Below are positions 18,813 through 50,440 of a stretch of DNA of 61,685 nt, piece after piece (position 1 is the first letter of the stretch; every line of letters begins with the position of its first letter). This DNA comes from Candidatus Pacearchaeota archaeon CG10_big_fil_rev_8_21_14_0_10_34_76 (GTDB lineage Archaea; Nanobdellota; Nanobdellia; Pacearchaeales; GW2011-AR1). Where the stretch lies: positions 128,286 through 189,970 of the forward strand of contig PFDB01000002.1 of the NCBI GenBank assembly GCA_002763075.1. The letters run 5' to 3'. The notes under the pieces were generated by a model that did not search any database, was not told the origin of the DNA, and saw nothing but the letters and a program-made list of their open reading frames with translations. Position numbers and translations under genes: made by a program.

Positions 18813-18939
18813 CGTCCCCGACAGGATTTGAACCTGCGACCTATGCCTATCTCAATTGCTTTCGCAATCATAAACCTCTTCAGGATTTATTCCTTCAGGT
18901 TAGGAGGGCATCGCTCTATCCAGGCTGAGCTACAGGGAC
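18813..18939 (-). tRNA. tRNA-Arg(CCT) with a 52-nt intron at position 37/38 (18849-18900)
   Basis: GTCCCTG acceptor stem; anticodon arm ATGCC CT CCT A / A GGCAT is interrupted; T-arm GCAGG TTCAAAT CCTGT. Confidence 0.93.
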
Positions 18940-39114: not shown

Positions 39115-39405
39115 CTAATGAGAATTAGATCTGTCTGTGAGGAAGTAAGAGGCTATTAGCATTAAAAGAAGGCTAAAAATTGTTATGAAAAATGAGGTGA
39201 GGAAACTTAATGTTGCGGTACCTTGAACATTTATGAATCTTATTACAAAAGACTCTACAACGTCAAAGATAGTTTGTCTCCATGTGAATGCGATTGTGAA
39301 TCCAAGAGCCACTATGATTAATAGACGCAACTGCCTACGGAATTCTTTCTTGAAGTTTTCTCCTCCAATGAAGAATGATTTTGCTTTCTTTTTTATTATT
39401 TTCAT
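39115..39405 (-). CDS. DUF5654-like two-TM protein
   Basis: ALGFTIAFTW motif; resembles the upstream gene. Confidence 0.65.
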   Translation of the reverse strand: MKIIKKKAKSFFIGGENFKKEFRRQLRLLIIVALGFTIAFTWRQTIFDVVESFVIRFINVQGTATLSFLTSFFITIFSLLLMLIASYFLTDRSNSH

Positions 39406-39776
39406 TTTTTCCCTGGTTTATCTGGTGTTTTTGCCCATTTAGAAATAAACATGATACCTATGACGGATATTGCTGTGACTATTATTGCTGTATAAAGATC
39501 TGCAAGATAAGGATATTTTTCTAAAAGCTCACTTGTTTTATGGAAATTTTTGGCTAATTTTGTTATGAGATCTTTCCAAGAAAGCGCTATTATGAAACCA
39601 AACCCTGCCATTATTGCTGTTGATGTGTGCTTTTTGAATTCGGATCCAAATGCAGATCCTCCTTGGAGAACTCTTTTTCTGAGTTTAATTTTTTCTTTTT
39701 GAACTTGTTGTTCAACCTGCTTTTCTACCTCTTTTTTTAGCTCGTCCTGCTGTTTTTTTGTTAAATCTGATGACAT
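39402..39776 (-). CDS. DUF5654-like two-TM protein
   Basis: AGFGFIIALSWKD...YTAIIVT. Confidence 0.7.
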   Translation of the reverse strand: MSSDLTKKQQDELKKEVEKQVEQQVQKEKIKLRKRVLQGGSAFGSEFKKHTSTAIMAGFGFIIALSWKDLITKLAKNFHKTSELLEKYPYLADLYTAIIVTAISVIGIMFISKWAKTPDKPGKK

Positions 39777-39899
39777 TAGTGTTAAGAGATATGAACATTT
39801 TTAATGCTTTCGTAAATATCTTGTGTTTTTTTGATGTTGTGTTGCGTACCGAGAGAAAATTGAATTAAATAAAAAAAATAAAGTTTGTTTTTGTTGGAA

Positions 39900-40046
39900 T
39901 TATTTACCAGTGAAAGCTCCAATTCCGCCTATGAAAGCTAGAATTCCGCCAATTGCTGGAAGAAAGTAGTCGAATCCCCAGAATTGTCCGATGAAAGCTA
40001 CAACTCCACCGATCAGAGCCAACCAGCTTTGCCAATTACCTGCCAT
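39900..40046 (-). CDS. 48-aa Gly-rich two-helix membrane peptide (not in the ORF track)
   Basis: MAGNWQSWLALIGGVVAFIGQFWGFDYFLPAIGGILAFIGGIGAFTGK; strong SD GGAGGTG at 40052-40058; T-rich tract downstream. Confidence 0.8.
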   Translation of the reverse strand: MAGNWQSWLALIGGVVAFIGQFWGFDYFLPAIGGILAFIGGIGAFTGK

Positions 40047-40294
40047 TTATACACCTCCTTTCAAATGGGTTGAATTATCCATTTTATAGAAATTGATGGG
40101 AAAAGTTGTTTAAATATGTTTCTTTTTTCTTGACGATTTTGAGAAACTGCTATTTCTTTTAATCCTTAAAAAAGAAAGAATTAATGAAAAAAATTAGGTT
40201 TTTCGGGCGCAATCGGCGCTTCGCGCCTCAATTTATTGAGGTAATTTTTTCTTGATAGGGGGGGACTTATTTTTAAGTATCTGGAGAGTTTTCA

Positions 40295-40443
40295 AGGGTG
40301 TTTTTGGGTGTTTAAGTGGTGTTTAAGTGGTGTTTAAGTGTGTTTTTTTAATTACCCTCGCTGTTTAGGGGTGTTTAAACAGCTGTTTAAAATAAATCCT
40401 AGGGTGTTTTTGGGTGTTTAAGTGGTGTTTAAGTGTGTTTTTT
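40295..40443. repeat. Helically phased TGTTT / GGTGTTTAAGT iteron-like array
   Basis: Five GGTGTTTAAGT 11-mers in two duplicated blocks; 12 TGTTT cores at about 10.5-bp spacing; central palindrome TTTAAACAGCTGTTTAAA. Confidence 0.92.
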
Positions 40444-40501
40444 ACTACTTTTTTAGGTAAAATTACGAAAGATTTATATACGATAAATCATAGAAATCTA
40501 T

Positions 40502-41140
40502 ATGTTTTGGATATTTAATGGTAAAAAAAGAGTAGAAAATCTTGAAGAAAATACTAAGAGGGGTTTTGAAGAAGTAAAAAAAGATTTTGAAGGTGTTGGT
40601 AAATGGATTAAACACCTAGACAACAGAGATAAACAGCTGTTTGATATTATTCGAGAGATAAAATCAGAATTGTCCTCGATTAATGATGAGGTTGATGGTT
40701 TGAGAGAAGCTCTTTCTTTAATGAATTTTGCCTCTGAGGGCAAACAGCTGTCCAAAAAACAAACAGGTGTTGGTAAACAGATGCCTGTTTATAGTGTTCA
40801 AGAACCTGTCCAAACACCTGTCCAAACAGGCAATTTTCACCAAATTTTGCAGAATTTGAGTGCGAACGAAAGATTGATAGTTCTTACACTTTTGAATGCG
40901 GAAGGAGATATGAAGTTAAGTTATGAGGATATTGCTAAGCTACTCGGAAAAGAGAGATCTACGATTAGAGGGCAAATAAACTCAATAAAACAGAAAAGTG
41001 AGAGTTTAGTATATGAATTAACCGAACCTAATGGGAAGAAAAGAGTGTATATCCCTGAAGAAATTAAAGAAAAACTGCTGAAATACGCGAAAGTGAGAGT
41101 TGGCAATGATAAAAAATCTGAAAAAAAGAGGAAAAAGTGA
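40502..41140 (+). CDS. Coiled-coil + Q/T-rich linker + C-terminal winged-helix protein
   Basis: Heptad-rich N-terminus; LSANERLIVLTLL...LSYEDIAKLLGKERSTIRGQINSIKQK HTH followed by a beta wing (PNGKKRVYI). Confidence 0.8.
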   Translation: MFWIFNGKKRVENLEENTKRGFEEVKKDFEGVGKWIKHLDNRDKQLFDIIREIKSELSSINDEVDGLREALSLMNFASEGKQLSKKQTGVGKQMPVYSVQEPVQTPVQTGNFHQILQNLSANERLIVLTLLNAEGDMKLSYEDIAKLLGKERSTIRGQINSIKQKSESLVYELTEPNGKKRVYIPEEIKEKLLKYAKVRVGNDKKSEKKRKK

Positions 41141-41296
41141 GAGAAAAATGAGAATTTATGGAAAATCTGTAAAAGTGAGTGCTTGGAAGTATGAAAAATT
41201 AGAATTTTTTGATGGAAAAGTGAGTGATATTTTTTATTTTTTGGAAGGAATTGAAAAGTGAGCATAATCATTGTGCAAAAAAATTAAAAAAGTGAG
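40994..41296 (+). repeat. Same-strand (A)AAAGTGAG array
   Basis: AAAAGTGAG at 40994, 41133, 41171, 41216, 41254 and 41288; AAAGTGAG at 41090. Confidence 0.8.
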
Positions 41297-41434
41297 GAAA
41301 AATTGCCTGTTTGGCGTGCAATTTTTCTGATTAGGTGGGCTGAAATAGCCAAAACCGAGCCCTTTGGGGCTTGAGGGGGCTAAATTTGGATTTAGTGTGA
41401 ACCTTATAATTTATTCGGTATAGCGGATAGTCCA

Positions 41435-42181
41435 TTAGAGTGTTCTGAGTTGGTGGATTGTTTCAAGGGTGACTATTTTTCTGAGATCTTTTGAAATTGA
41501 AAGGGTTATCCTTTTGTTGTTTTCCTTAAGTTTATCGACGGGAATGCCTTTTTTAATGAGTCTTAGAACATAATCTCTGATAGAACTTTCTGTTAATTTG
41601 AGTTTTTCTGAGAGAATTGAATAATCGACGATGAATCCTTGTTCTTCTAGTTCGTATATTGTGCTAAATACTTGCATTTCTTGCGAGGTTAATCTTTTGA
41701 ATTTAAAACGAACTTCTTTCTTTAATTCGTCGAGGGATCCTAGAAGTTCTGATGCTCTGTGTATTTGGGTTAAAATGTGGGGTTTTTCTATGTTTTTTGA
41801 GGTTTTTAATGTATTCTCTTGTATTTCTGGCAGTTTTATGTGTAGTTCTGATGTGTTCAATGGTAGATTTTGAGGATTTTTCTCTGTTTTCCAGTGGAAA
41901 TAGGGGGGTTGTCTGTCTGTCTGTTGGTCTGTCTGTCTGTCTGTCGAAACCCCTTCATTTCCAGTGGAGATTGTTGAAATTTGGCTTTTTACGGCTTCTA
42001 GAGACAAATTATGTGTTGGAGTGTCTGTCTTATGTCTGTTGTCTGTCTGTTTCTTTAGTATTTCTGTCTGAATTTCATTTAATTCTTGTATAGTTCGTTT
42101 TAATTCTTGAAGTTCATAGTATAAGAAATCTATATCTTGTCTTGCATTAGCGAAGGCTTCCTTTATTTTGTCTTCCTGCAT
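41435..42181 (-). CDS. Coiled-coil + Q/T/D-rich linker + C-terminal winged-helix protein
   Basis: Heptad-rich N-terminus; LTSQEMQVFSTIY...VDYSILSEKLKLTESSIRDYVLRLIKKG HTH with wing (ENNKRITLSI). Confidence 0.8.
   Translation of the reverse strand: MQEDKIKEAFANARQDIDFLYYELQELKRTIQELNEIQTEILKKQTDNRHKTDTPTHNLSLEAVKSQISTISTGNEGVSTDRQTDQQTDRQPPYFHWKTEKNPQNLPLNTSELHIKLPEIQENTLKTSKNIEKPHILTQIHRASELLGSLDELKKEVRFKFKRLTSQEMQVFSTIYELEEQGFIVDYSILSEKLKLTESSIRDYVLRLIKKGIPVDKLKENNKRITLSISKDLRKIVTLETIHQLRTL
41889..41969. promoter_or_regulatory. Inverted pair of ORB-like boxes flanking a (GTCT)n tract, inside a CDS
   Basis: TTCCAGTGGAAATAGGGGGG (+, 41889-41908) and CTCCACTGGAAATGAAGGGGTT (-, 41948-41969) match the ORBs upstream of cdc6. 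Confidence 0.75.
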
Positions 42182-42264
42182 GGTTTTTTTACTCTTGGAG
42201 AGAATTTAAGGATTTGTGTTCAGAAGAAGTTTATATATATTAAAGATTTTTATATTGCAGAGAA

Positions 42265-42702
42265 ATGGTGACTTTTCGGGGTGTTGAAGCCTTAGATCCT
42301 GATTGTGGTAATGTCTTTATTTATAGGTTTAATGGACATCCCAATTTAAACATGGCTACATCATACAAGGGGTTACTAATTGAATCTTCTGTTTCTCCTA
42401 AAGATATAGCTGTGAATCTAATTCGGTTAGACTGTTGTTTTCCTAATGGGTTTAAGTCTCCTATGGACCGACTTGTCAATGGACCTCCAGATGGGTTAAG
42501 AGCTGATTCTTTTGATGAAATTTTTGATGAGATTGATAGAGATTCAGAATTTTATACGCCTGTCGGTAGGCATTCATTTACACCTATTCCAAAAGAAGAC
42601 TGGGAGACTCTCATCGAAAGGGTTGAATCTGAAAGATATAAAGAGTGGCTTATTAAAAAATTGGGCCCTAGGGGATTTTATTGTGAATTTTCGTTAGGAT
42701 GA
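42265..42702 (+). CDS. Hypothetical protein
   Basis: 145 aa; TATA box upstream. Confidence 0.6.
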   Translation: MVTFRGVEALDPDCGNVFIYRFNGHPNLNMATSYKGLLIESSVSPKDIAVNLIRLDCCFPNGFKSPMDRLVNGPPDGLRADSFDEIFDEIDRDSEFYTPVGRHSFTPIPKEDWETLIERVESERYKEWLIKKLGPRGFYCEFSLG

Positions 42703-42965
42703 TATTTTTTGAAGACGTCGTAGGCCTCATTTGAAAGTCTCCAGCGTTCTCTTCTAATATAATCTAATCCAGAAGAAGACTTCTTTATTTTAACTATAAG
42801 CTTGTTTTTTTCTAAGTCTTTGAGAAGGGCCTTTGTGAATTCTTCATCGCGAATGATTTGTTCTGCGATTTTTGAGGTGAAGTTAGATTCTGGAGATATG
42901 GAAAATAGGTAGTGTAGGATTTGTTCTGAGATTTTGTCTCTTTTAATTTTAGATATTGGAGGCAT
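42678..42965 (-). CDS. Small winged-helix DNA-binding protein
   Basis: EQILHYL...FTSKIAEQIIRDEEFTKALLKDLEKNKLIVKI...RWRL pattern. Confidence 0.7.
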   Translation of the reverse strand: MPPISKIKRDKISEQILHYLFSISPESNFTSKIAEQIIRDEEFTKALLKDLEKNKLIVKIKKSSSGLDYIRRERWRLSNEAYDVFKKYHPNENSQ

Positions 42966-43003
42966 TAAAATAATTGTACTGAGAAGTATTAAAGTTATTC
43001 GGT

Positions 43004-43294
43004 TTAGTAGTTAGGGTTGTGGGTGCCTGGGCCTACGTAAACTGCTAGATCTGCTGCAGTTATTGTGCATGCTCTTTCAATAGCTTCGAAGGTTGGGCGG
43101 GCTGCACGGTCAAGGTCTGTTTCTCTTTCCATTTCTTTTCTGTATTCCTGTGCTTCTGGGCTGTTTGGATTTTCTCTTATATATTTAGATTTTGCAAGTG
43201 CTTTACTAACTAACTGTGCGAGATTGGAGTCATAGCTTCTTTTACGATTTGGATCTCTTTTGTGTGTGGGTGGTAACATTGGATTATAATTCAT
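43004..43294 (-). CDS. Hypothetical protein
   Basis: 96 aa with its own TATA-like box. Confidence 0.55.
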   Translation of the reverse strand: MNYNPMLPPTHKRDPNRKRSYDSNLAQLVSKALAKSKYIRENPNSPEAQEYRKEMERETDLDRAARPTFEAIERACTITAADLAVYVGPGTHNPNY

Positions 43295-43988: not shown

Positions 43989-46604
43989 ATGCTCAATATG
44001 GCTCGGGAAATAACCTTTATGGAAGAGCCTCATGCTGCTGCTGAAGTTAGAAAGATATTACATCCGCTTGTTGCTGAATGGTTTTTTAGGAAATTTGACG
44101 ACTTTTCGCTGACACAGTTGTATGGGGTGAAGACAATATCTGACAGGAAAAATATACTGATAAGTGCGCCTACTGGAGGGACTAAGACACTTACTGCCTT
44201 TCTTGGAATAATAAATTATGTTGTTGGGTTGGCCTTGAAGAATGAACTTGAAGAAAAAATTTATGCAGTTTATGTTTCACCTTTAAAGGCATTGAGCAAT
44301 GATATTTTTGTGAATTTGGAAGCTCCCCTTAGTGAAATTTACGATCTTGCAAAGGAAAGGGGGCTTGAAATGCAGAATATTAGGGTAGGTGTTAGGACTG
44401 GGGACACTACGGTTTCTGAAAGGGCGAAACATGCTAGAAAAGTTCCCCATATTTATGTCACGACCCCTGAAAGTCTTGCTATAGTACTTACTACAACTAA
44501 ATTTGTAGAGAATCTTTCTGCTTTAGAATTCATTATAGTAGATGAGATTCATGCCATGGCAAATAAAAGGGGCGTATATATGAGCTTAACATTGGAAAGA
44601 CTTTGTGAATTAAGTTTGATTGAACCAGTTCGTATTGGACTTAGTGCGACTATTGCTCCTCTTGAAGATATTGCAAGATTTTTAGTTGGAGAAGGAAGAG
44701 ATTGTCTTATAGCAAGGGTAAAATTAATGAAAAAAATTGATATTGGGTTAATATCTCCTGCAAAAGATTTGATTGAAGCAGATAGCATTCAAAGTCAAAA
44801 GGAATTGTATAAGATTTTAGATGGATTAATACAAGACCATAAAACAACTTTAATTTTCACAAATACGCGGGCTGCAACTGAAAAAATAATACATTATCTT
44901 GATTTGCATTTTCCTGGAAAATATAACGAGTTAATTGGAGCACATCATAGTTCTATGAGCAAAGAAAATAGATTTGAGATAGAAAATAAGCTTAGAAAGG
45001 GGGAATTGAAGGTTGTTGTGACCTCTACTTCGTTAGAGCTTGGCATTGATATTGGAAACGTTGATTTGGTTATATTACTGAGATCTCCGAAAGGAGTTGC
45101 TCGAGCATTACAAAGAATTGGAAGGGCAGGACATAAATTACACAGCAATCCTAAGGGAAGATTTATTGTGACTGACCGAGATGATCTTATTGAATGTGGT
45201 GTGATGATGAAAGGCATGATTGAAAATAAGATAGATAGAGTTGATATTCCTAAAAATGCCTTAGATGTCCTTGCGCAGCAGATATATGGTATGGCAATTT
45301 CTAAAATATGGAGGGCTGAGGATATGCTTAAGATGATACGAAAAAGTTATTGTTATGCTGATTTAAGTGAAGAAGATTTTTTTGCTGTTGTTTCTTATTT
45401 GGCAGGGGATTACGCCTTGGAACACAGACACGTTTATGCAAAAATCTGGTATGATGCAACTAGTGGAGAGATTGGAAAGAGAGGAAAGACTGCTAGGATA
45501 ATTTATATGACTAATATTGGGACTATACCTGAAGAGGGTTTTATTTCTGTGGTTATAAGTGCTCCAGTGGAAAAGAGGGGGCAGATTATTGGCAAGATTG
45601 ATGAAGCCTTCTTGGAGAAGATGAAAAGAGGAGATGTGTTTGTTTTAGGAGGACATAAATATCAATTTATTAGAAGTCAGGGCATGAAGGCTTATGTTAT
45701 TGCAGATGTTTCTAAAAGCCCCACCATACCTTCTTGGTTTAGTGAAATGCTTCCATTAAGTTATGATGTTGCTATTGAAATCGCTAAATTTAGAAGACTT
45801 GTTAAGGAGAAGATAGAAAATAAGAAGAAAACTTTAGATTTTATCAAGGAATATTTGTATTGTGGAGATATTGAAGCAGACCAAATGTATGATTATTTAT
45901 CTGAGCAAGCGAAATTTAGTGAAATCCCTACAGATAAAGAATTGATAGTTGAAAAATTCAAAAGTGATAAAGAATATTTGTTGTTTCATAGTATGTATGG
46001 GAGAAGAGTAAATGATGCTCTTTCTAGGGCGTATGGGTTTGCTGCTGCAAGATTGAAACATAGAGACATTGAAGTAGGAATAAATGATAACGGATTTTAT
46101 CTTGCTGGGGAGAAGCTTGATGAAAATAAAATTTTAGATTGGGTGAAGGCAAAAGACCTTGAATTAATATTAAAAGAGGCTATAGAAACAACTGATGTTT
46201 TAAGAAGAAGATTTAGGCATTGTGCTTCAAGAAGCTTGATGATATTAAGAACCTATAAAGGAAGAAGCAAGACTGTTGGAAAACAACAAATGCATTCTCA
46301 TTTCTTGTTGGCTGCTGTTAGAAAAATAAGTAATGAGTTTCCGATCTTACAAGAAGCAAGGAGAGAGGTATTTGAAGACGTGATGGATATACATCGGGCT
46401 AAGGGAATTTTGAAAGATATAGAGAATGGAAAGATAAAAGTAAAAAAAGTTAGGACGCCATTGGTTTCGCCGTTTGGATTGAATTTAATATTACAAAGTC
46501 ATGCTGATTTAATAAGAATGGAAGAAAAACTGCAATTTTTAAGGAGAATGCATAAACTTCAAATGGGCATTATTGAAAGCAAAGAAGGAAATGGGAAGGA
46601 ATAA
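43989..46604 (+). CDS. lhr: ATP-dependent helicase Lhr (archaeal Lhr-core)
   Basis: SPLKALSND, RTGDT, TTPES, DEIH, LSAT, HHSS, SLELGIDIG, QRIGRAGH, IGTIP, IPSWFSE. Confidence 0.95.
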   Translation: MLNMAREITFMEEPHAAAEVRKILHPLVAEWFFRKFDDFSLTQLYGVKTISDRKNILISAPTGGTKTLTAFLGIINYVVGLALKNELEEKIYAVYVSPLKALSNDIFVNLEAPLSEIYDLAKERGLEMQNIRVGVRTGDTTVSERAKHARKVPHIYVTTPESLAIVLTTTKFVENLSALEFIIVDEIHAMANKRGVYMSLTLERLCELSLIEPVRIGLSATIAPLEDIARFLVGEGRDCLIARVKLMKKIDIGLISPAKDLIEADSIQSQKELYKILDGLIQDHKTTLIFTNTRAATEKIIHYLDLHFPGKYNELIGAHHSSMSKENRFEIENKLRKGELKVVVTSTSLELGIDIGNVDLVILLRSPKGVARALQRIGRAGHKLHSNPKGRFIVTDRDDLIECGVMMKGMIENKIDRVDIPKNALDVLAQQIYGMAISKIWRAEDMLKMIRKSYCYADLSEEDFFAVVSYLAGDYALEHRHVYAKIWYDATSGEIGKRGKTARIIYMTNIGTIPEEGFISVVISAPVEKRGQIIGKIDEAFLEKMKRGDVFVLGGHKYQFIRSQGMKAYVIADVSKSPTIPSWFSEMLPLSYDVAIEIAKFRRLVKEKIENKKKTLDFIKEYLYCGDIEADQMYDYLSEQAKFSEIPTDKELIVEKFKSDKEYLLFHSMYGRRVNDALSRAYGFAAARLKHRDIEVGINDNGFYLAGEKLDENKILDWVKAKDLELILKEAIETTDVLRRRFRHCASRSLMILRTYKGRSKTVGKQQMHSHFLLAAVRKISNEFPILQEARREVFEDVMDIHRAKGILKDIENGKIKVKKVRTPLVSPFGLNLILQSHADLIRMEEKLQFLRRMHKLQMGIIESKEGNGKE

Positions 46605-47824: not shown

Positions 47825-48232
47825 TTATTTTGCTGGCTTTTGAATTTTAGGTAAACTAATATGAAGGGGGAGTCCTAAATCTTCTTCCATTTGGAGGGCC
47901 TTAAGAGAACATTTATTTAAGATTATATTAAAAACGGGCACCTTTAGTTCGTCATTCATTTTTTTCTTTTTCCAGTCTTTTATTGTTTTGTCTAAAATGT
48001 CTTCCGTTGTGCTTAGTAATAAAATTCCTTCAAAGGTTAGTTCTGCTTGCTTTGTTTCATATTCAATAGAAAATTTGAAAGATATTTTTAATATTTTAGA
48101 ATCCTTCATTATTTCAATGTTGTCTTTTTCTATATTTGTAAATTCAATATTTGTGGAAATTTTTTCTATTTTTTCTAACTTAATATTTCTTTTTGCAGAG
48201 ACATTTGTGAAATTAATACCTAAAAGTTTCAT
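47825..48232 (-). CDS. Hypothetical protein (SecB-like beta/alpha pattern)
   Basis: 135 aa with alternating beta-strand pattern and C-terminal LGLPLHISLP. Confidence 0.6.
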   Translation of the reverse strand: MKLLGINFTNVSAKRNIKLEKIEKISTNIEFTNIEKDNIEIMKDSKILKISFKFSIEYETKQAELTFEGILLLSTTEDILDKTIKDWKKKKMNDELKVPVFNIILNKCSLKALQMEEDLGLPLHISLPKIQKPAK

Positions 48233-48699: not shown

Positions 48700-49180
48700 A
48701 TTGTTGGCACCCTCACCCTATCATTTCCACTGGAAAAATCATAAAGGTTTAAATATAGAGGAGGAAATTCATTTCTTCTTCTTTTCTTTTATAAATATAT
48801 ATATATTATATTATATATATTATATTATTAATATTTAAATAGTATATATTAAAACAAAGCATATCAAAGTATTATATATTAAAATGACCAATATTAAAAT
48901 CCTATGACTTTTGATATTAATAGTTCTTTAATCTCTTATTTTAAAATTTTAAATATTAAACTTTTATAGCATTTCATTAAATGATTTATTTACTCTATTT
49001 AACATTTTTATTAAGATTTTAGTGTGGTTGTTCGTTAATGTTCGTTTAACGCAACAATAATATATTTAATTAAACAGAGACTCCAGTGGAAACGGGGGTG
49101 TGTGTGTTTTTAATAAAATATGACTTTTTTTATAATTTTTCCTCCTGATTTAAATATTTCCATTTGAAATAAAGGTTAAA
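48700..49180. other. oriC: Replication origin oriC: ORBs flanking an AT-rich unwinding element
   Basis: 685-bp non-coding gap upstream of cdc6. ORBs TCCAGTGGAAATGATAGGG (-, about 48716-48734), CTCCAGTGGAAACGGGGG (+, 49081-49098) and a weaker TTCCATTTGAAATAAAGG (49158-49175). Pure A/T tract at about 48790-48840. Confidence 0.88.
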
Positions 49181-49231: not shown

Positions 49232-50440
49232 ATGACGGTCAAATTAAATAAAATATTCGATTCTATAGCTGGAAATATAATTTTTCGTGATAAAAGTGTT
49301 TTGCAAATAAACCATACGCCTGGATCGATACCACATAGAGATGAACAAATCGAAGCAGTTGCGTCTATATTGGCGCCTTCGCTAAGGGGAGATAGAGTAA
49401 GTAATTTATTTGTTTATGGAAAGACTGGAACTGGAAAGACACTATGTGTGCAATATGTAACAAATGAAATAAGCAAAAGGGTAAAGGAAACCGGAGAGGA
49501 CGTCTTAAAGGTAATATATGTTAATTGTAAGTTGAAAAAGGTAGCTGATACAGAATATAGGATATTAGCTGAAATAATAAATCGACTAGGGGGAAGTGTC
49601 CCAGCGACAGGCCTTCCCACAGATAGCGTTTATAATAAGTTTATTGAATTAATTGATGGGAAGAAACAAGTAATATTAATTGTTTTGGATGAAATAGACC
49701 AGGCTGTAAAGAAAATATCTGATAGTTTTCTCTATACCCTAACAAGATTGAATTCGGAGCTGAAAAATGCACAAATAAGTATTGTCGGAATAAGTAACAG
49801 CTTAACATTTATGGATGAACTAGATCCAAGAGTTAGAAGTTCGCTTGGAGAGGAAGAACTTGTATTTCCTCCATATAATGCATTACAATTGCAAGAAATA
49901 TTAAAGAAAAGAGCAAGTGAGGCCTTTAATGAAGGCATTTTAAGTGAGGGGGTTATAGCAAAGTGTGCTGCCTTTGCAGCAAGAGAACATGGGGATGCAA
50001 GAAGAGCTCTTGATTTGTTGAGGGTTGCTGGAGAATTAGCAGAAAGGTCGGGAATAAAAAAATTGGATGTTGTTAGAATCGACGAAGCAAATAGTAAAAT
50101 AGAAAAAGATAAAATGCTAGATATTATAGAAAGTGAGCCTAAACAGTTTCAACTTGTACTCTTTGCTATTATGAGTCTGAGCCAAGATGAAAAAATGAAT
50201 AAGATCTTTACTGGAGATATTTATAATAAATATGAAGAAATATGCAGAAAGACAAAGAACGAGGCACTTACACAAAGGAGAGTGTCAGATATCGTTGCTG
50301 AGTTTGATATGTTAGGATTAATAAATGCTAAGGTGGTTAGCAAGGGAAGACAAGGACGAACGAGAGAAATAAAATTGATGCTTCCTGAAAATGTTCGCAA
50401 TAAGGCAAGAGAAATATTGATAGAATCATTGAATTTATGA
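49232..50440 (+). CDS. cdc6: Orc1/Cdc6 replication initiator
   Basis: IPHRDEQI, YGKTGTGKT, VLDEID, LDPRVRSSL, FPPYNA, HGDARRALDLLR, C-terminal winged helix. Confidence 0.97.
   Translation: MTVKLNKIFDSIAGNIIFRDKSVLQINHTPGSIPHRDEQIEAVASILAPSLRGDRVSNLFVYGKTGTGKTLCVQYVTNEISKRVKETGEDVLKVIYVNCKLKKVADTEYRILAEIINRLGGSVPATGLPTDSVYNKFIELIDGKKQVILIVLDEIDQAVKKISDSFLYTLTRLNSELKNAQISIVGISNSLTFMDELDPRVRSSLGEEELVFPPYNALQLQEILKKRASEAFNEGILSEGVIAKCAAFAAREHGDARRALDLLRVAGELAERSGIKKLDVVRIDEANSKIEKDKMLDIIESEPKQFQLVLFAIMSLSQDEKMNKIFTGDIYNKYEEICRKTKNEALTQRRVSDIVAEFDMLGLINAKVVSKGRQGRTREIKLMLPENVRNKAREILIESLNL

Follow-up and report, generated by a model that had tools for sequence, protein, structure and literature searches.

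Two winged-helix genes and four families of short DNA motifs at a conserved locus near the putative replication origin of Pacearchaeota-like archaea

Here we describe a conserved locus of small genes and short DNA repeats near the putative replication origin (oriC) of a Candidatus Pacearchaeota archaeon, within a 61,685-nucleotide stretch of its DNA (‘the window’; contig C15:128286-189970). The genome (G000) comprises 914 kb in 21 contigs, has 34% GC and is 88% complete; its sequence is present in 11 DNA runs, from groundwater and aquifer metagenomes, and no RNA run is listed. Two convergent genes lie at the center of the locus: gene 1 (40502..41140, plus strand; 212 aa) and gene 2 (41435..42181, minus strand; 248 aa), both open reading frames over these coordinates. 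In and around them are four families of short DNA motifs, and one of these, a complete candidate origin recognition box (ORB), is held codon by codon inside gene 2. We compared 31 related genomes, 10 of them of high quality, finding orthologues at the loci by phmmer. Counts of loci refer to two sets: a main set of 25 genomes, comprising 19 loci (that of the window included) that read from gene 1 through cdc6 and six that are partial; and a second set of 80 further species genomes, each with 3-kb flanks, fetched from the 492 of 185,579 species genomes in which a pattern scan found a relative of gene 2. The relatives that carry gene 2 are labeled Pacearchaeota, Woesearchaeota and Nanoarchaeota, or Nanobdellota in the Atlas structure rows.

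The two proteins share one architecture, an N-terminal coil, a low-complexity linker and a C-terminal winged helix-turn-helix, as a first-pass annotation of the sequence had proposed. Gene 1 begins with an aromatic–basic N-terminus (MFWIFNGKKR), continues with a long helix and a disordered linker, and ends with a winged helix and a C-terminal helix. Its AlphaFold2 model places these at residues 2–86 (helix), 79–109 (low confidence), 112–183 (winged helix) and 186–201 (helix), with a mean predicted local distance difference test score (pLDDT) of 66. Gene 2 has an N-terminal helix (2–46), a disordered linker of ~90 residues (~43–131; pLDDT <50), and a confidently modeled helix plus winged-helix domain (134–247); its mean pLDDT is 73. 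In both models the order of secondary structures (helix–helix–helix–strand–strand) is that of the winged helix-turn-helix fold. The C-terminal domains align with each other by hhalign (82% probability, E 1e-5, 62 columns), and BLASTP aligns the N-terminal coils only, weakly (E 0.008); judged by these alignments, the genes are distant paralogues. A predicted complex of the two proteins scored 0.15, against a mark of 0.32, a value that speaks neither for nor against their binding. Foldseek matches the gene 1 domain to winged helices of the MarR/ArsR type (MepR, MexR, SmtB and AbfR2; E 3e-4 to 1e-3), with TM scores that are low because of the long helix. From this and from structure rows of the Atlas, we take both C-terminal domains to be modeled as generic winged helices of the MarR/ArsR/Lrs14 type.

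No Pfam or NCBIfam model scores above its cut-off for either protein, the best sub-threshold matches being HTH_36 (21.1 bits; cut-off 25) and Fe_dep_repress (17.6; cut-off 26) in Pfam, and Lrs14 (14.7; cut-off 90) in NCBIfam. Sequence-profile searches of the PDB with the alignments A1 and A2, and with A3 for the 95-aa protein described below, returned nothing below E 0.03. The family is uncharacterized, in keeping with the earlier failure to match it to a named one. It is not small: homologues at E ≤0.001 number 2965 for gene 1 and 2166 for gene 2. Each gene occurs in 26 of the 31 related genomes and in all 10 of those of high quality, as a single copy in these reduced genomes. The N-terminus of gene 1 follows the pattern M-[FIVG]-[FWG]-x-[FWL]...[KR]K in 25/25 genomes (e.g. 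MFWIFNGKKR, MGFLWFGRKK and MGLFDWLFKK). In the window (40502-40540) and in orthologues it resembles, by appearance alone, a membrane-targeting amphipathic helix.

The sole conserved stretch of the disordered linker of gene 2 reads S-x-G-N-x-G-V, and is coded by TTCCAnnGGAAAT-nnn-GGGGTT. ORB cores are short dyads, and the ORBs of Sulfolobus and Aeropyrum carry, at constant spacing from the core, a G-rich extension known as the ‘G-string’; the linker DNA has both. In the window, this site (ORB-A; 41946..41972, minus strand, the sense strand of gene 2) is ATCTCCACTGGAAATGAAGGGGTTTCG, read I-S-T-G-N-E-G-V-S, and it is conserved order-wide. The pattern TCC Ann GGA AAT nnn GGG GTT (CCA or TCG) ACA GAC... 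is present in 23/23 genomes with the linker in view, TTCCAnnGGAAAT lies on the sense strand of gene 2 in 19/19 genomes read through to cdc6, and a stricter ORB expression is matched in 71 of the 80 further genomes. The looser core TCCA..GGAAA occurs in gene 2 in 19/19 genomes, within 450 bp upstream of cdc6 in 13/19, and seven times in the remaining 193 kb. The consensus in gene 2, TTTCCA.aGGAAATgaaGGGGTT, and that on the cdc6 side, ttTCCAt.GGAAAtatagGtgt, have the same core, spacer and G-run; the extension is GGGGTT after a 3-nt spacer in gene 2, and GG(T/G)GT at the cdc6-side sites. Across the 914 kb of the genome, the full ORB pattern has three occurrences, two of them in gene 2 and the third at oriC.

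At this site, it is the codons that are frozen. A codon alignment of gene 2 from the 25 genomes contains 33 conserved residue columns, and in six of them, every one within the ORB, 90% or more of the genomes share a single codon; in cdc6, aligned as a control from the 19 loci that include it, this is true of 4 of 171 conserved columns. By residue, the codons are TCC for Ser (23/23), GGA for Gly (24/24), AAT for Asn (22/24), GGG for Gly (24/24), GTT for Val (23/23) and ACA for Thr (22/22); two loci without the linker (L040 and L005) were left out of these counts. There, on G011:C27 and G015:C4 respectively, contig ends cut gene 2 inside its repeat-encoded linker. The 80 further genomes repeat the result (TCC 76/78, GGA 78/78, AAT 66/76, GGG 75/78, GTT 73/74), so that conservation of DNA motifs at synonymous sites, a check suggested by the first-pass annotation, is found in both sets. 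TCC, GGG and TCG are rare codons, frozen here in AT-rich genomes (~34% GC). Residues vary exactly at the free positions of the ORB: among the 80 genomes, one position is T, I, S, N or K and the other E, R, D, Q or K. The residue after G-V is Pro as CCA or Ser as TCG in 74 of 78 loci, with Pro written CCA in 58/58 and Ser written TCG in 16/17 (TCC in one); the others noted are Gln (CAG, two) and Lys (AAG, one). CCA and TCG are codons three bases apart, and TTCGACA and TCCAACA are the cores of 11-bp units, described below, in distant genomes. The first such unit seems to begin inside the CCA or TCG codons, and so to hold half of the ORB core (TCCA), to judge by these cores.

Beyond ORB-A, the linker of gene 2 in the window contains a second, inverted ORB (ORB-B; 41887..41911, plus strand), TTTTCCAGTGGAAATAGGGGGGTTG, which is read in another frame on the gene 2 strand as PPYFHWK. 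The G-strings of the two ORBs face a core of (GTCT)n between them: motif D (41910..41946), which is (GTCT)n on the plus strand and (GACA)n on that of gene 2, codes TDRQTDQQTDRQ, and can also be read as (TGTC)n at 41910-41945. ORB-B is intact in G000 and G002 and degenerate in G001 and L012 within the 25-locus set, where 4/25 ORB-pattern matches within gene 2 are on the antisense strand; ORB-like antisense partners occur also in L032, L039 and the class-level locus L123. Motif D varies by lineage. Genomes of family f1 have (GACA)n; distant genomes have, instead, three to four copies of an 11-bp unit (ACAGTTCGACA four times in L036; ACACTTCGACA, CAATCAGACAA and ACACATCTCCA three times each in L039, L031 and L032), read in three frames. 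Variant units seem to match variant recognition helices of gene 2, a correspondence confounded by phylogeny.

The repeats of gene 1 are of two kinds. Motif B forms arrays upstream of the gene (40295..40443, plus strand), in which GGTGTTTAAGT, phased at 11 bp, occurs as three copies (40307-40339) and two (40413-40434) on either side of a palindrome, GTGTTTAAACAGCTGTTTAAA (40371-40392). With up to one mismatch allowed there are 7 matches to GGTGTTTAAGT, against 0.97 expected; the exact copies in the 914-kb genome number five, all at 40307-40434, and the palindrome occurs nowhere else in it. Across the 25 genomes, the related word [GC]TGT[TC][TC]AA is found 9.6 times per kb over the 350 bp that precede gene 1, 8.2 times per kb within gene 1 and 0.27 times per kb in the rest of the loci, and two or more copies lie upstream of gene 1 in 17/25. 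Within gene 1, the linker (40741..40828, plus strand) is itself written in motif B, as AAACAGCTGTCC... followed by CCTGTCCAAACA twice (40804-40828); in general form it is AAACAG[CG]TGTYY plus three 12-bp units, nnTGTYCAAACA. These code the invariant peptide VQTxVQT, in which Gln is CAA (24/25, 22/22 and 24/25), Thr is ACA (22/22, 21/25 and 22/22), Val is only GTT or GTC, and which falls where the model of gene 1 has pLDDT <50.

Motif C, with the consensus AAAAGTGAGAGTTAA, forms a strictly polar array (40994..41300, plus strand) that runs from the end of gene 1 into the space between the genes. Copies start at 40994 and 41090, inside gene 1, and at 41133, 41171, 41216, 41254 and 41288, between the genes. 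The word AAAAGTGAG has six matches, all on the plus strand at 40994-41296, against 1.36 expected, and these are 6 of its 13 copies in the genome. In the 25 genomes, the 8.98 kb of inter-gene zone contains 72 copies of motif C on the gene 1 strand and none on the other, compared with 23 and 18 in 229 kb elsewhere; 75 further loci give 203 and none. The copy at 41090 codes the near-invariant peptide KVRV, written AAA GTG AGA GTT in 14/25 genomes; in L035, the word is shifted by one base into another frame, and read KSES. The copy at 40994-41006, AAAAGTGAGAGTT, is a second one of full consensus within gene 1; it is translated K-S-E-S, as part of IKQKSE, a near-invariant peptide in the region of the recognition helix.

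Several potential hairpins accompany the repeats. After the last copy of motif C comes GAAAAATTGCC...GCAATTTTTC (41296..41330, plus strand; −12.4 kcal/mol), kept among close relatives only: in L021 and L022, and with an altered loop and stem top in L040. Three small stems follow (41338-41397; −22.3 kcal/mol), and GGGCGC...GCGCC with CCTCAAT...ATTGAGG (40205-40245; −15.7) precedes the motif B arrays, GC-rich hairpins in AT-rich spacers. Just past the stop codon of gene 2 is the element TTATTCGGT... (41411..41433), often an imperfect palindrome, perhaps a hairpin for termination or perhaps a further site for binding; [AT]TTCG[GT]T is found within 70 nt of the gene 2 stop codon in 17/25 genomes, against a background of 104 matches in 236 kb of both strands. 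Searches with Rfam, at gathering thresholds over the whole window and at E ≤1 over 39800-43100, gave only a chance microRNA-like match, and so no known RNA family accounts for the conservation at the locus. The phased array upstream of gene 1, the polar array between the genes and the repeat-coded linker of gene 1, all claimed from the window alone, prove to consist of conserved motif families: these recur across the 25 genomes, and that of the polar array also in the 75 further loci. The claim that the linker of gene 2 is coded by GTCT repeats and ORBs is correct for the window, where both are seen; order-wide, it holds for one ORB of the two.

The putative oriC (48716..49100) lies 6.6–8.6 kb from genes 1 and 2, in agreement with the 6–9 kb first estimated. 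This stretch has 24.7% GC and inverted ORBs at 48724-48734 (minus strand) and 49082 (plus strand; TCCAGTGGAAACGGGGGTG), with an AT-rich interval between (~48760-49050); it would have the canonical layout of an archaeal origin. Next comes cdc6 (49232-50440, plus strand), followed by the PolD genes DP1 and DP2. The ORB word TCCAGTGGAAA has nine matches in the window at up to one mismatch, against 1.55 expected, and its exact copies in the genome number four, all in the window, at 41890, 45563, 48724 (minus strand) and 49082. The second of these belongs to a further full ORB-like site, GCTCCAGTGGAAAAGAGGGGGCAG (45555-45585), inside the lhr gene (43989-46604, plus strand), and is kept in the same-genus genome G002.

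The locus keeps its place relative to cdc6. The order gene 1 (plus), gene 2 (minus), cdc6 (plus) is found in 19/19 loci read through, with the pair upstream of cdc6, gene 1 on the strand of cdc6, and the 5′ end of gene 2 from 1.35 to 12.9 kb away from it. Among the 25 relatives carrying gene 1, 18 have cdc6 within 13 kb on the same contig; of the others, five (G006, G007, G011, G015 and G016) end at contig ends, one (G023) has no cdc6 match and one (G025, discussed below) has cdc6 on another contig. Short-read assemblies probably break at the repeats of the locus, which may hide linkage to cdc6 in fragmented genomes. In the second set, gene 1 is adjacent to gene 2 and convergent with it in 75/75 loci, the other five of the 80 having no contig room for gene 1, and cdc6 falls inside the 3-kb flanks in 23/80. 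Linkage of the homologues, which was put forward as a check on the first proposal, is thus borne out, to each other in both sets and to cdc6 in the first. The conserved block as a whole comprises DUF5654 (minus), gene 1, gene 2, a 95-aa gene, optionally lhr and a phosphoesterase gene, a 135-aa gene (minus), oriC and cdc6. Where the genome is compact, gene 2 and the 95-aa and 135-aa genes make up a single run that diverges from oriC. The fixed position of the locus across an order, and the lack of an integrase in the block, led us to reject a mobile element.

The 95-aa gene (42678..42965, minus strand) has an orthologue in 21 of the 24 relative loci, where it shares the strand of gene 2 and lies immediately upstream of it; G000 and G002 differ in having an open reading frame (42265-42702, plus strand) inserted between the two. 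Its orthologues match HTH_69 in 14/19 cases (best E 1.6e-4) and HrcA_DNA-bdg in 8/19, all below the cut-offs, and the protein is probably, on the strength of such matches, a winged helix; hhalign finds no relation to genes 1 and 2 in alignments A1 and A2. What had been described as a third winged-helix gene flanking the pair is therefore a conserved neighbor, which abuts gene 2 in relatives, and its winged helix is recognized at sub-threshold level. The 135-aa gene (47825..48232, minus strand), the last member of the block before oriC, has an orthologue in 18/24 relative loci, and family searches gave no match to it. On the far side of gene 1 are two tandem DUF5654 membrane-protein genes (39115-39776, minus strand), and DUF5654 is found there in 12/24 relative loci. 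A 48-aa membrane peptide (39900-40046), described earlier as strongly expressed-looking and as a flanking part of the module, is genus-specific: relatives occur in two same-genus genomes alone, 2/24 relative loci. Elsewhere in the window, between tRNA-Gly and tRNA-Leu, Rfam calls a 127-nt tRNA (18813-18939, minus strand) that is absent from the ARAGORN output, and which probably contains an intron.

What might such a locus do? The reading that we prefer, tentatively and short of calling it probable, is of a cis/trans module conserved beside the origin in a Pacearchaeota-like order of DPANN archaea. It would be coupled to oriC as an accessory locus, at which the initiator binds as part of a nucleoprotein complex. 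Three small proteins (those of gene 1, gene 2 and the 95-aa gene) would be encoded among four locus-restricted families of DNA motifs, with linkers and a protein tail coded by copies of the motifs, such that one DNA may serve as both message and putative binding site. Orc1/Cdc6 would bind the in-gene ORB, which would tie the locus to the initiator, and the coiled-coil winged-helix proteins would bind the direct-repeat arrays as dimers or oligomers. If rates of change are matched, the conserved motifs B or C might fall to gene 1, and the 11-bp units by the ORB, which vary between lineages, to gene 2. Together with Orc1/Cdc6, these proteins could build a nucleoprotein assembly of ~2 kb that, beside oriC, modulates the availability of Orc1/Cdc6 or the firing of the origin.

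Several observations lead in this direction. The same DNA words are read in more than one frame, with YFHWK for ORB-B, KSES for motif C in L035, and shifts of frame among the 11-bp units, which argues for constraint at the level of DNA; and the conserved peptides fall in low-confidence, probably disordered regions (pLDDT <50), which fits constraint on DNA better than on protein structure. Reduced as these genomes are, nearly all keep the genes, each as a single copy, and the sites do not spread beyond this locus, so that the most likely target of the proteins is their own locus: they would act there, and not as global regulators. The idea of an origin-proximal nucleoprotein complex for origin organization, segregation or initiation control, with which the first-pass annotation ended, gains support in this way from the synteny with cdc6, the conservation of the repeats and the lack of a characterized family, all of them properties of sequence.

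Other observations weigh against our preferred reading. In G025 the pair, with its ORB, lies at least 48 kb from any contig end, and cdc6 is on another contig. In distant members of the class, a gene 1-like gene and a short gene 2-like one stand in tandem, with no ORB and no cdc6 within 9 kb, so that the link to the origin is a feature of one order and not of the whole protein family; the ancestral role of the proteins need not concern the origin. (In L121, L122, L125 and L127, a gene 2-like gene of ~110–150 aa comes after a gene 1-like one of ~220–250 aa, in the same orientation and with no ORB-like site, a layout that is possibly the ancestral form of the pair; the class-level lineage L123 keeps the full arrangement.) Just one ORB, ORB-A, is conserved order-wide, and the ten-fold spread in its distance from oriC tells against a set, mechanical part in melting the origin. 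Frozen sites show that there is some reader at the level of DNA or RNA, not that this reader is Orc1/Cdc6, and the pairing of proteins with motifs is guesswork. The call of oriC, finally, draws on adjacency to cdc6, AT content and ORBs, and GC skew has no sign switch there. As an origin marker, GC skew proved uninformative, because it follows gene orientation.

Initiator sites outside origins have precedents. In bacteria, DnaA-box clusters lie outside oriC at datA, DARS1 and DARS2, where initiator sites are found next to sites for accessory proteins. The present locus resembles these in having initiator-type sites outside the origin, at a position conserved relative to it, and differs in its initiator, its domain of life and the lack of homology; an effect on the nucleotide state of Orc1/Cdc6, or its titration, would be pure inference from this analogy. 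A closer precedent is archaeal. In the Thermococcales, Cdc6/Orc1 binds, both in vivo and in vitro, a cluster of ORBs and mini-ORBs inside dp1, and purified Cdc6 binds a single ORB with high affinity, the conserved cores being TTCC and GAA (Matsunaga et al. 2007, PMC1904270). As in that description, ORBs with a TTCC...GAA core occur order-wide within coding sequence, at a distance of a few kb from oriC and cdc6. Here, however, the gene is a different one on the opposite side of cdc6, and there is one deeply conserved full ORB instead of a cluster. This ORB, moreover, falls where a DNA-binding protein has its disordered linker; short tandem repeats flank it, three further motif families share the locus, and its binding is putative. 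One can go further, and imagine a dual-coded origin control center in which Orc1/Cdc6 and three winged-helix proteins of the locus gather on ~2 kb of DNA that codes also for their linkers, as an archaeal counterpart of datA and DARS that sets when the single origin fires, or as the missing chromosomal centromere of ParB-less DPANN archaea, with the N-terminal helix of gene 1 tethering the origin to the membrane; this larger picture is possible, if doubtful.

The centromere can also be taken on its own. The locus might serve chiefly for positioning or segregating the origin, with the arrays as centromere, the N-terminus of gene 1 tethering the origin to the membrane, or an unlinked ParA-like ATPase moving the complex, and the ORB recruiting Orc1/Cdc6. 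We consider this unlikely. The centromeres of plasmid R1 (ParR/parC), of TubR/tubC and of SegAB (the SegB sites) are direct repeats beside the gene for the protein that binds them, and TubR is a winged helix. The two sets of 11-bp phased direct repeats upstream of gene 1 recall parC and tubC, and the arrays as a whole are strictly polar, unique to the locus, close to the origin and beside the gene for a small DNA-binding protein. The aromatic–basic N-terminus of gene 1, kept in 25/25 genomes, would suit a tether, yet its reading as a membrane helix goes by sequence appearance alone. Two ParA/MinD-like genes and an SMC gene are present elsewhere in the genome; the ParA-like matches, however, are on contigs C1 and C20, with none on the contig of the window, and may be MinD or Mrp. 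There is no ParB_N match in the genome (88% complete), and the first-pass annotation reported no ParA, ParB or SegA gene in the window. Nor is there a ParA, SegA, ParM or TubZ nucleoside triphosphatase (NTPase) gene, or a filament gene, in the conserved block. In this the locus is unlike ParABS, SegAB and the type I–III systems, which it differs from also in having winged-helix proteins and not ParB or ribbon-helix-helix proteins, an ORB, and repeats within coding DNA; and we know of no coiled-coil, disordered-linker, winged-helix build in the ParR, TubR or SegB families. Room for such a system there may be: the accessible part of a 2024 review describes archaeal segregation as largely unknown, mentions SegAB, and has nothing on DPANN (PMC7617429).

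Less likely again is that these are ordinary autoregulated transcription factors, the arrays being operators of genes 1, 2 and the 95-aa gene, with Orc1/Cdc6 at the ORB repressing or roadblocking the operon that diverges from oriC, and with no structural role at the origin. The generic MarR/ArsR/Lrs14-type fold, the operator-like position of motif B upstream of gene 1, and the distant homologues away from cdc6 all agree with this explanation, and Orc1-type proteins regulate transcription in Sulfolobales, according to the accessible parts of two papers (PMC12490963, PMC9738581). The likeness to MarR, ArsR and Lrs14 regulators ends, however, with the C-terminal fold. Genes 1 and 2 lack the helical dimer interface of MarR, have a long N-terminal helix and a disordered linker of 25–90 residues, and show no regulon-like spread of sites. 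With sites solely at their own genes in 914 kb, they would regulate nothing else, and yet they are kept, single-copy, in 10/10 high-quality reduced genomes. Operators leave unexplained, too, the 3–7 polar copies downstream of both genes, and the sites inside coding DNA that cost the genes their freedom of codon choice.

We regard it as very improbable that the locus belongs to oriC itself, or is a second origin, at which ORB-A loads MCM and the adjacent short repeats form an unwinding or assembly zone. ORB-A shares its strand with the distal (left) ORBs of oriC in the window locus, L021, L024 and L033, it lies ~1.6 kb from them in compact genomes, and in G000 two inverted ORBs flank a 40-bp repeat; but the core is ~50% GC, inside an open reading frame, with no AT-rich unwinding stretch, ORB-B is not order-wide (4/25 matches in gene 2 are antisense, though ORB-like antisense partners recur in L032, L039 and L123), and the distance to oriC reaches 12.9 kb. 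The last alternative, that STGNxGV, VQTxVQT and KVRV are peptide motifs conserved as protein, with the DNA repeats a by-product of low-complexity coding, accounts for peptides that show little or no variation in alignments A1 and A2, and is largely refuted by the fixation of the rare codons TCC, GGG and TCG in AT-rich genomes, the same words in nearby non-coding DNA and other frames, the alternation of Pro and Ser as CCA or TCG with the few exceptions listed above, and the match to the ORBs at oriC.

Our literature searches, which covered articles other than their supplementary files and a part of PMC, found no description of the module. Its elements are known (ORBs, winged helices, repeat arrays, and ORBs in coding DNA); what is new is their combination, the dual coding and the protein families. 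If the reading of the locus as an accessory module of the origin is right, it bears on how initiation is timed in organisms with one Orc1/Cdc6 and one origin, and on how origins are positioned and segregated in archaea without ParB. It also offers a natural case of overlapping codes, in which the open reading frames of more than 100 species-level genomes retain a full initiator-type site and other putative sites, and a trap for motif-based annotation of proteins, in that ‘conserved peptide motifs’ of disordered linkers would really be DNA elements. For uncultured organisms it provides concrete parts, in the form of four short motifs of DNA and of four proteins, small and soluble, that lend themselves to recombinant production. 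Selection on DNA to which proteins bind would then have written invariant ‘peptide motifs’ into disordered regions across a whole order of archaea.

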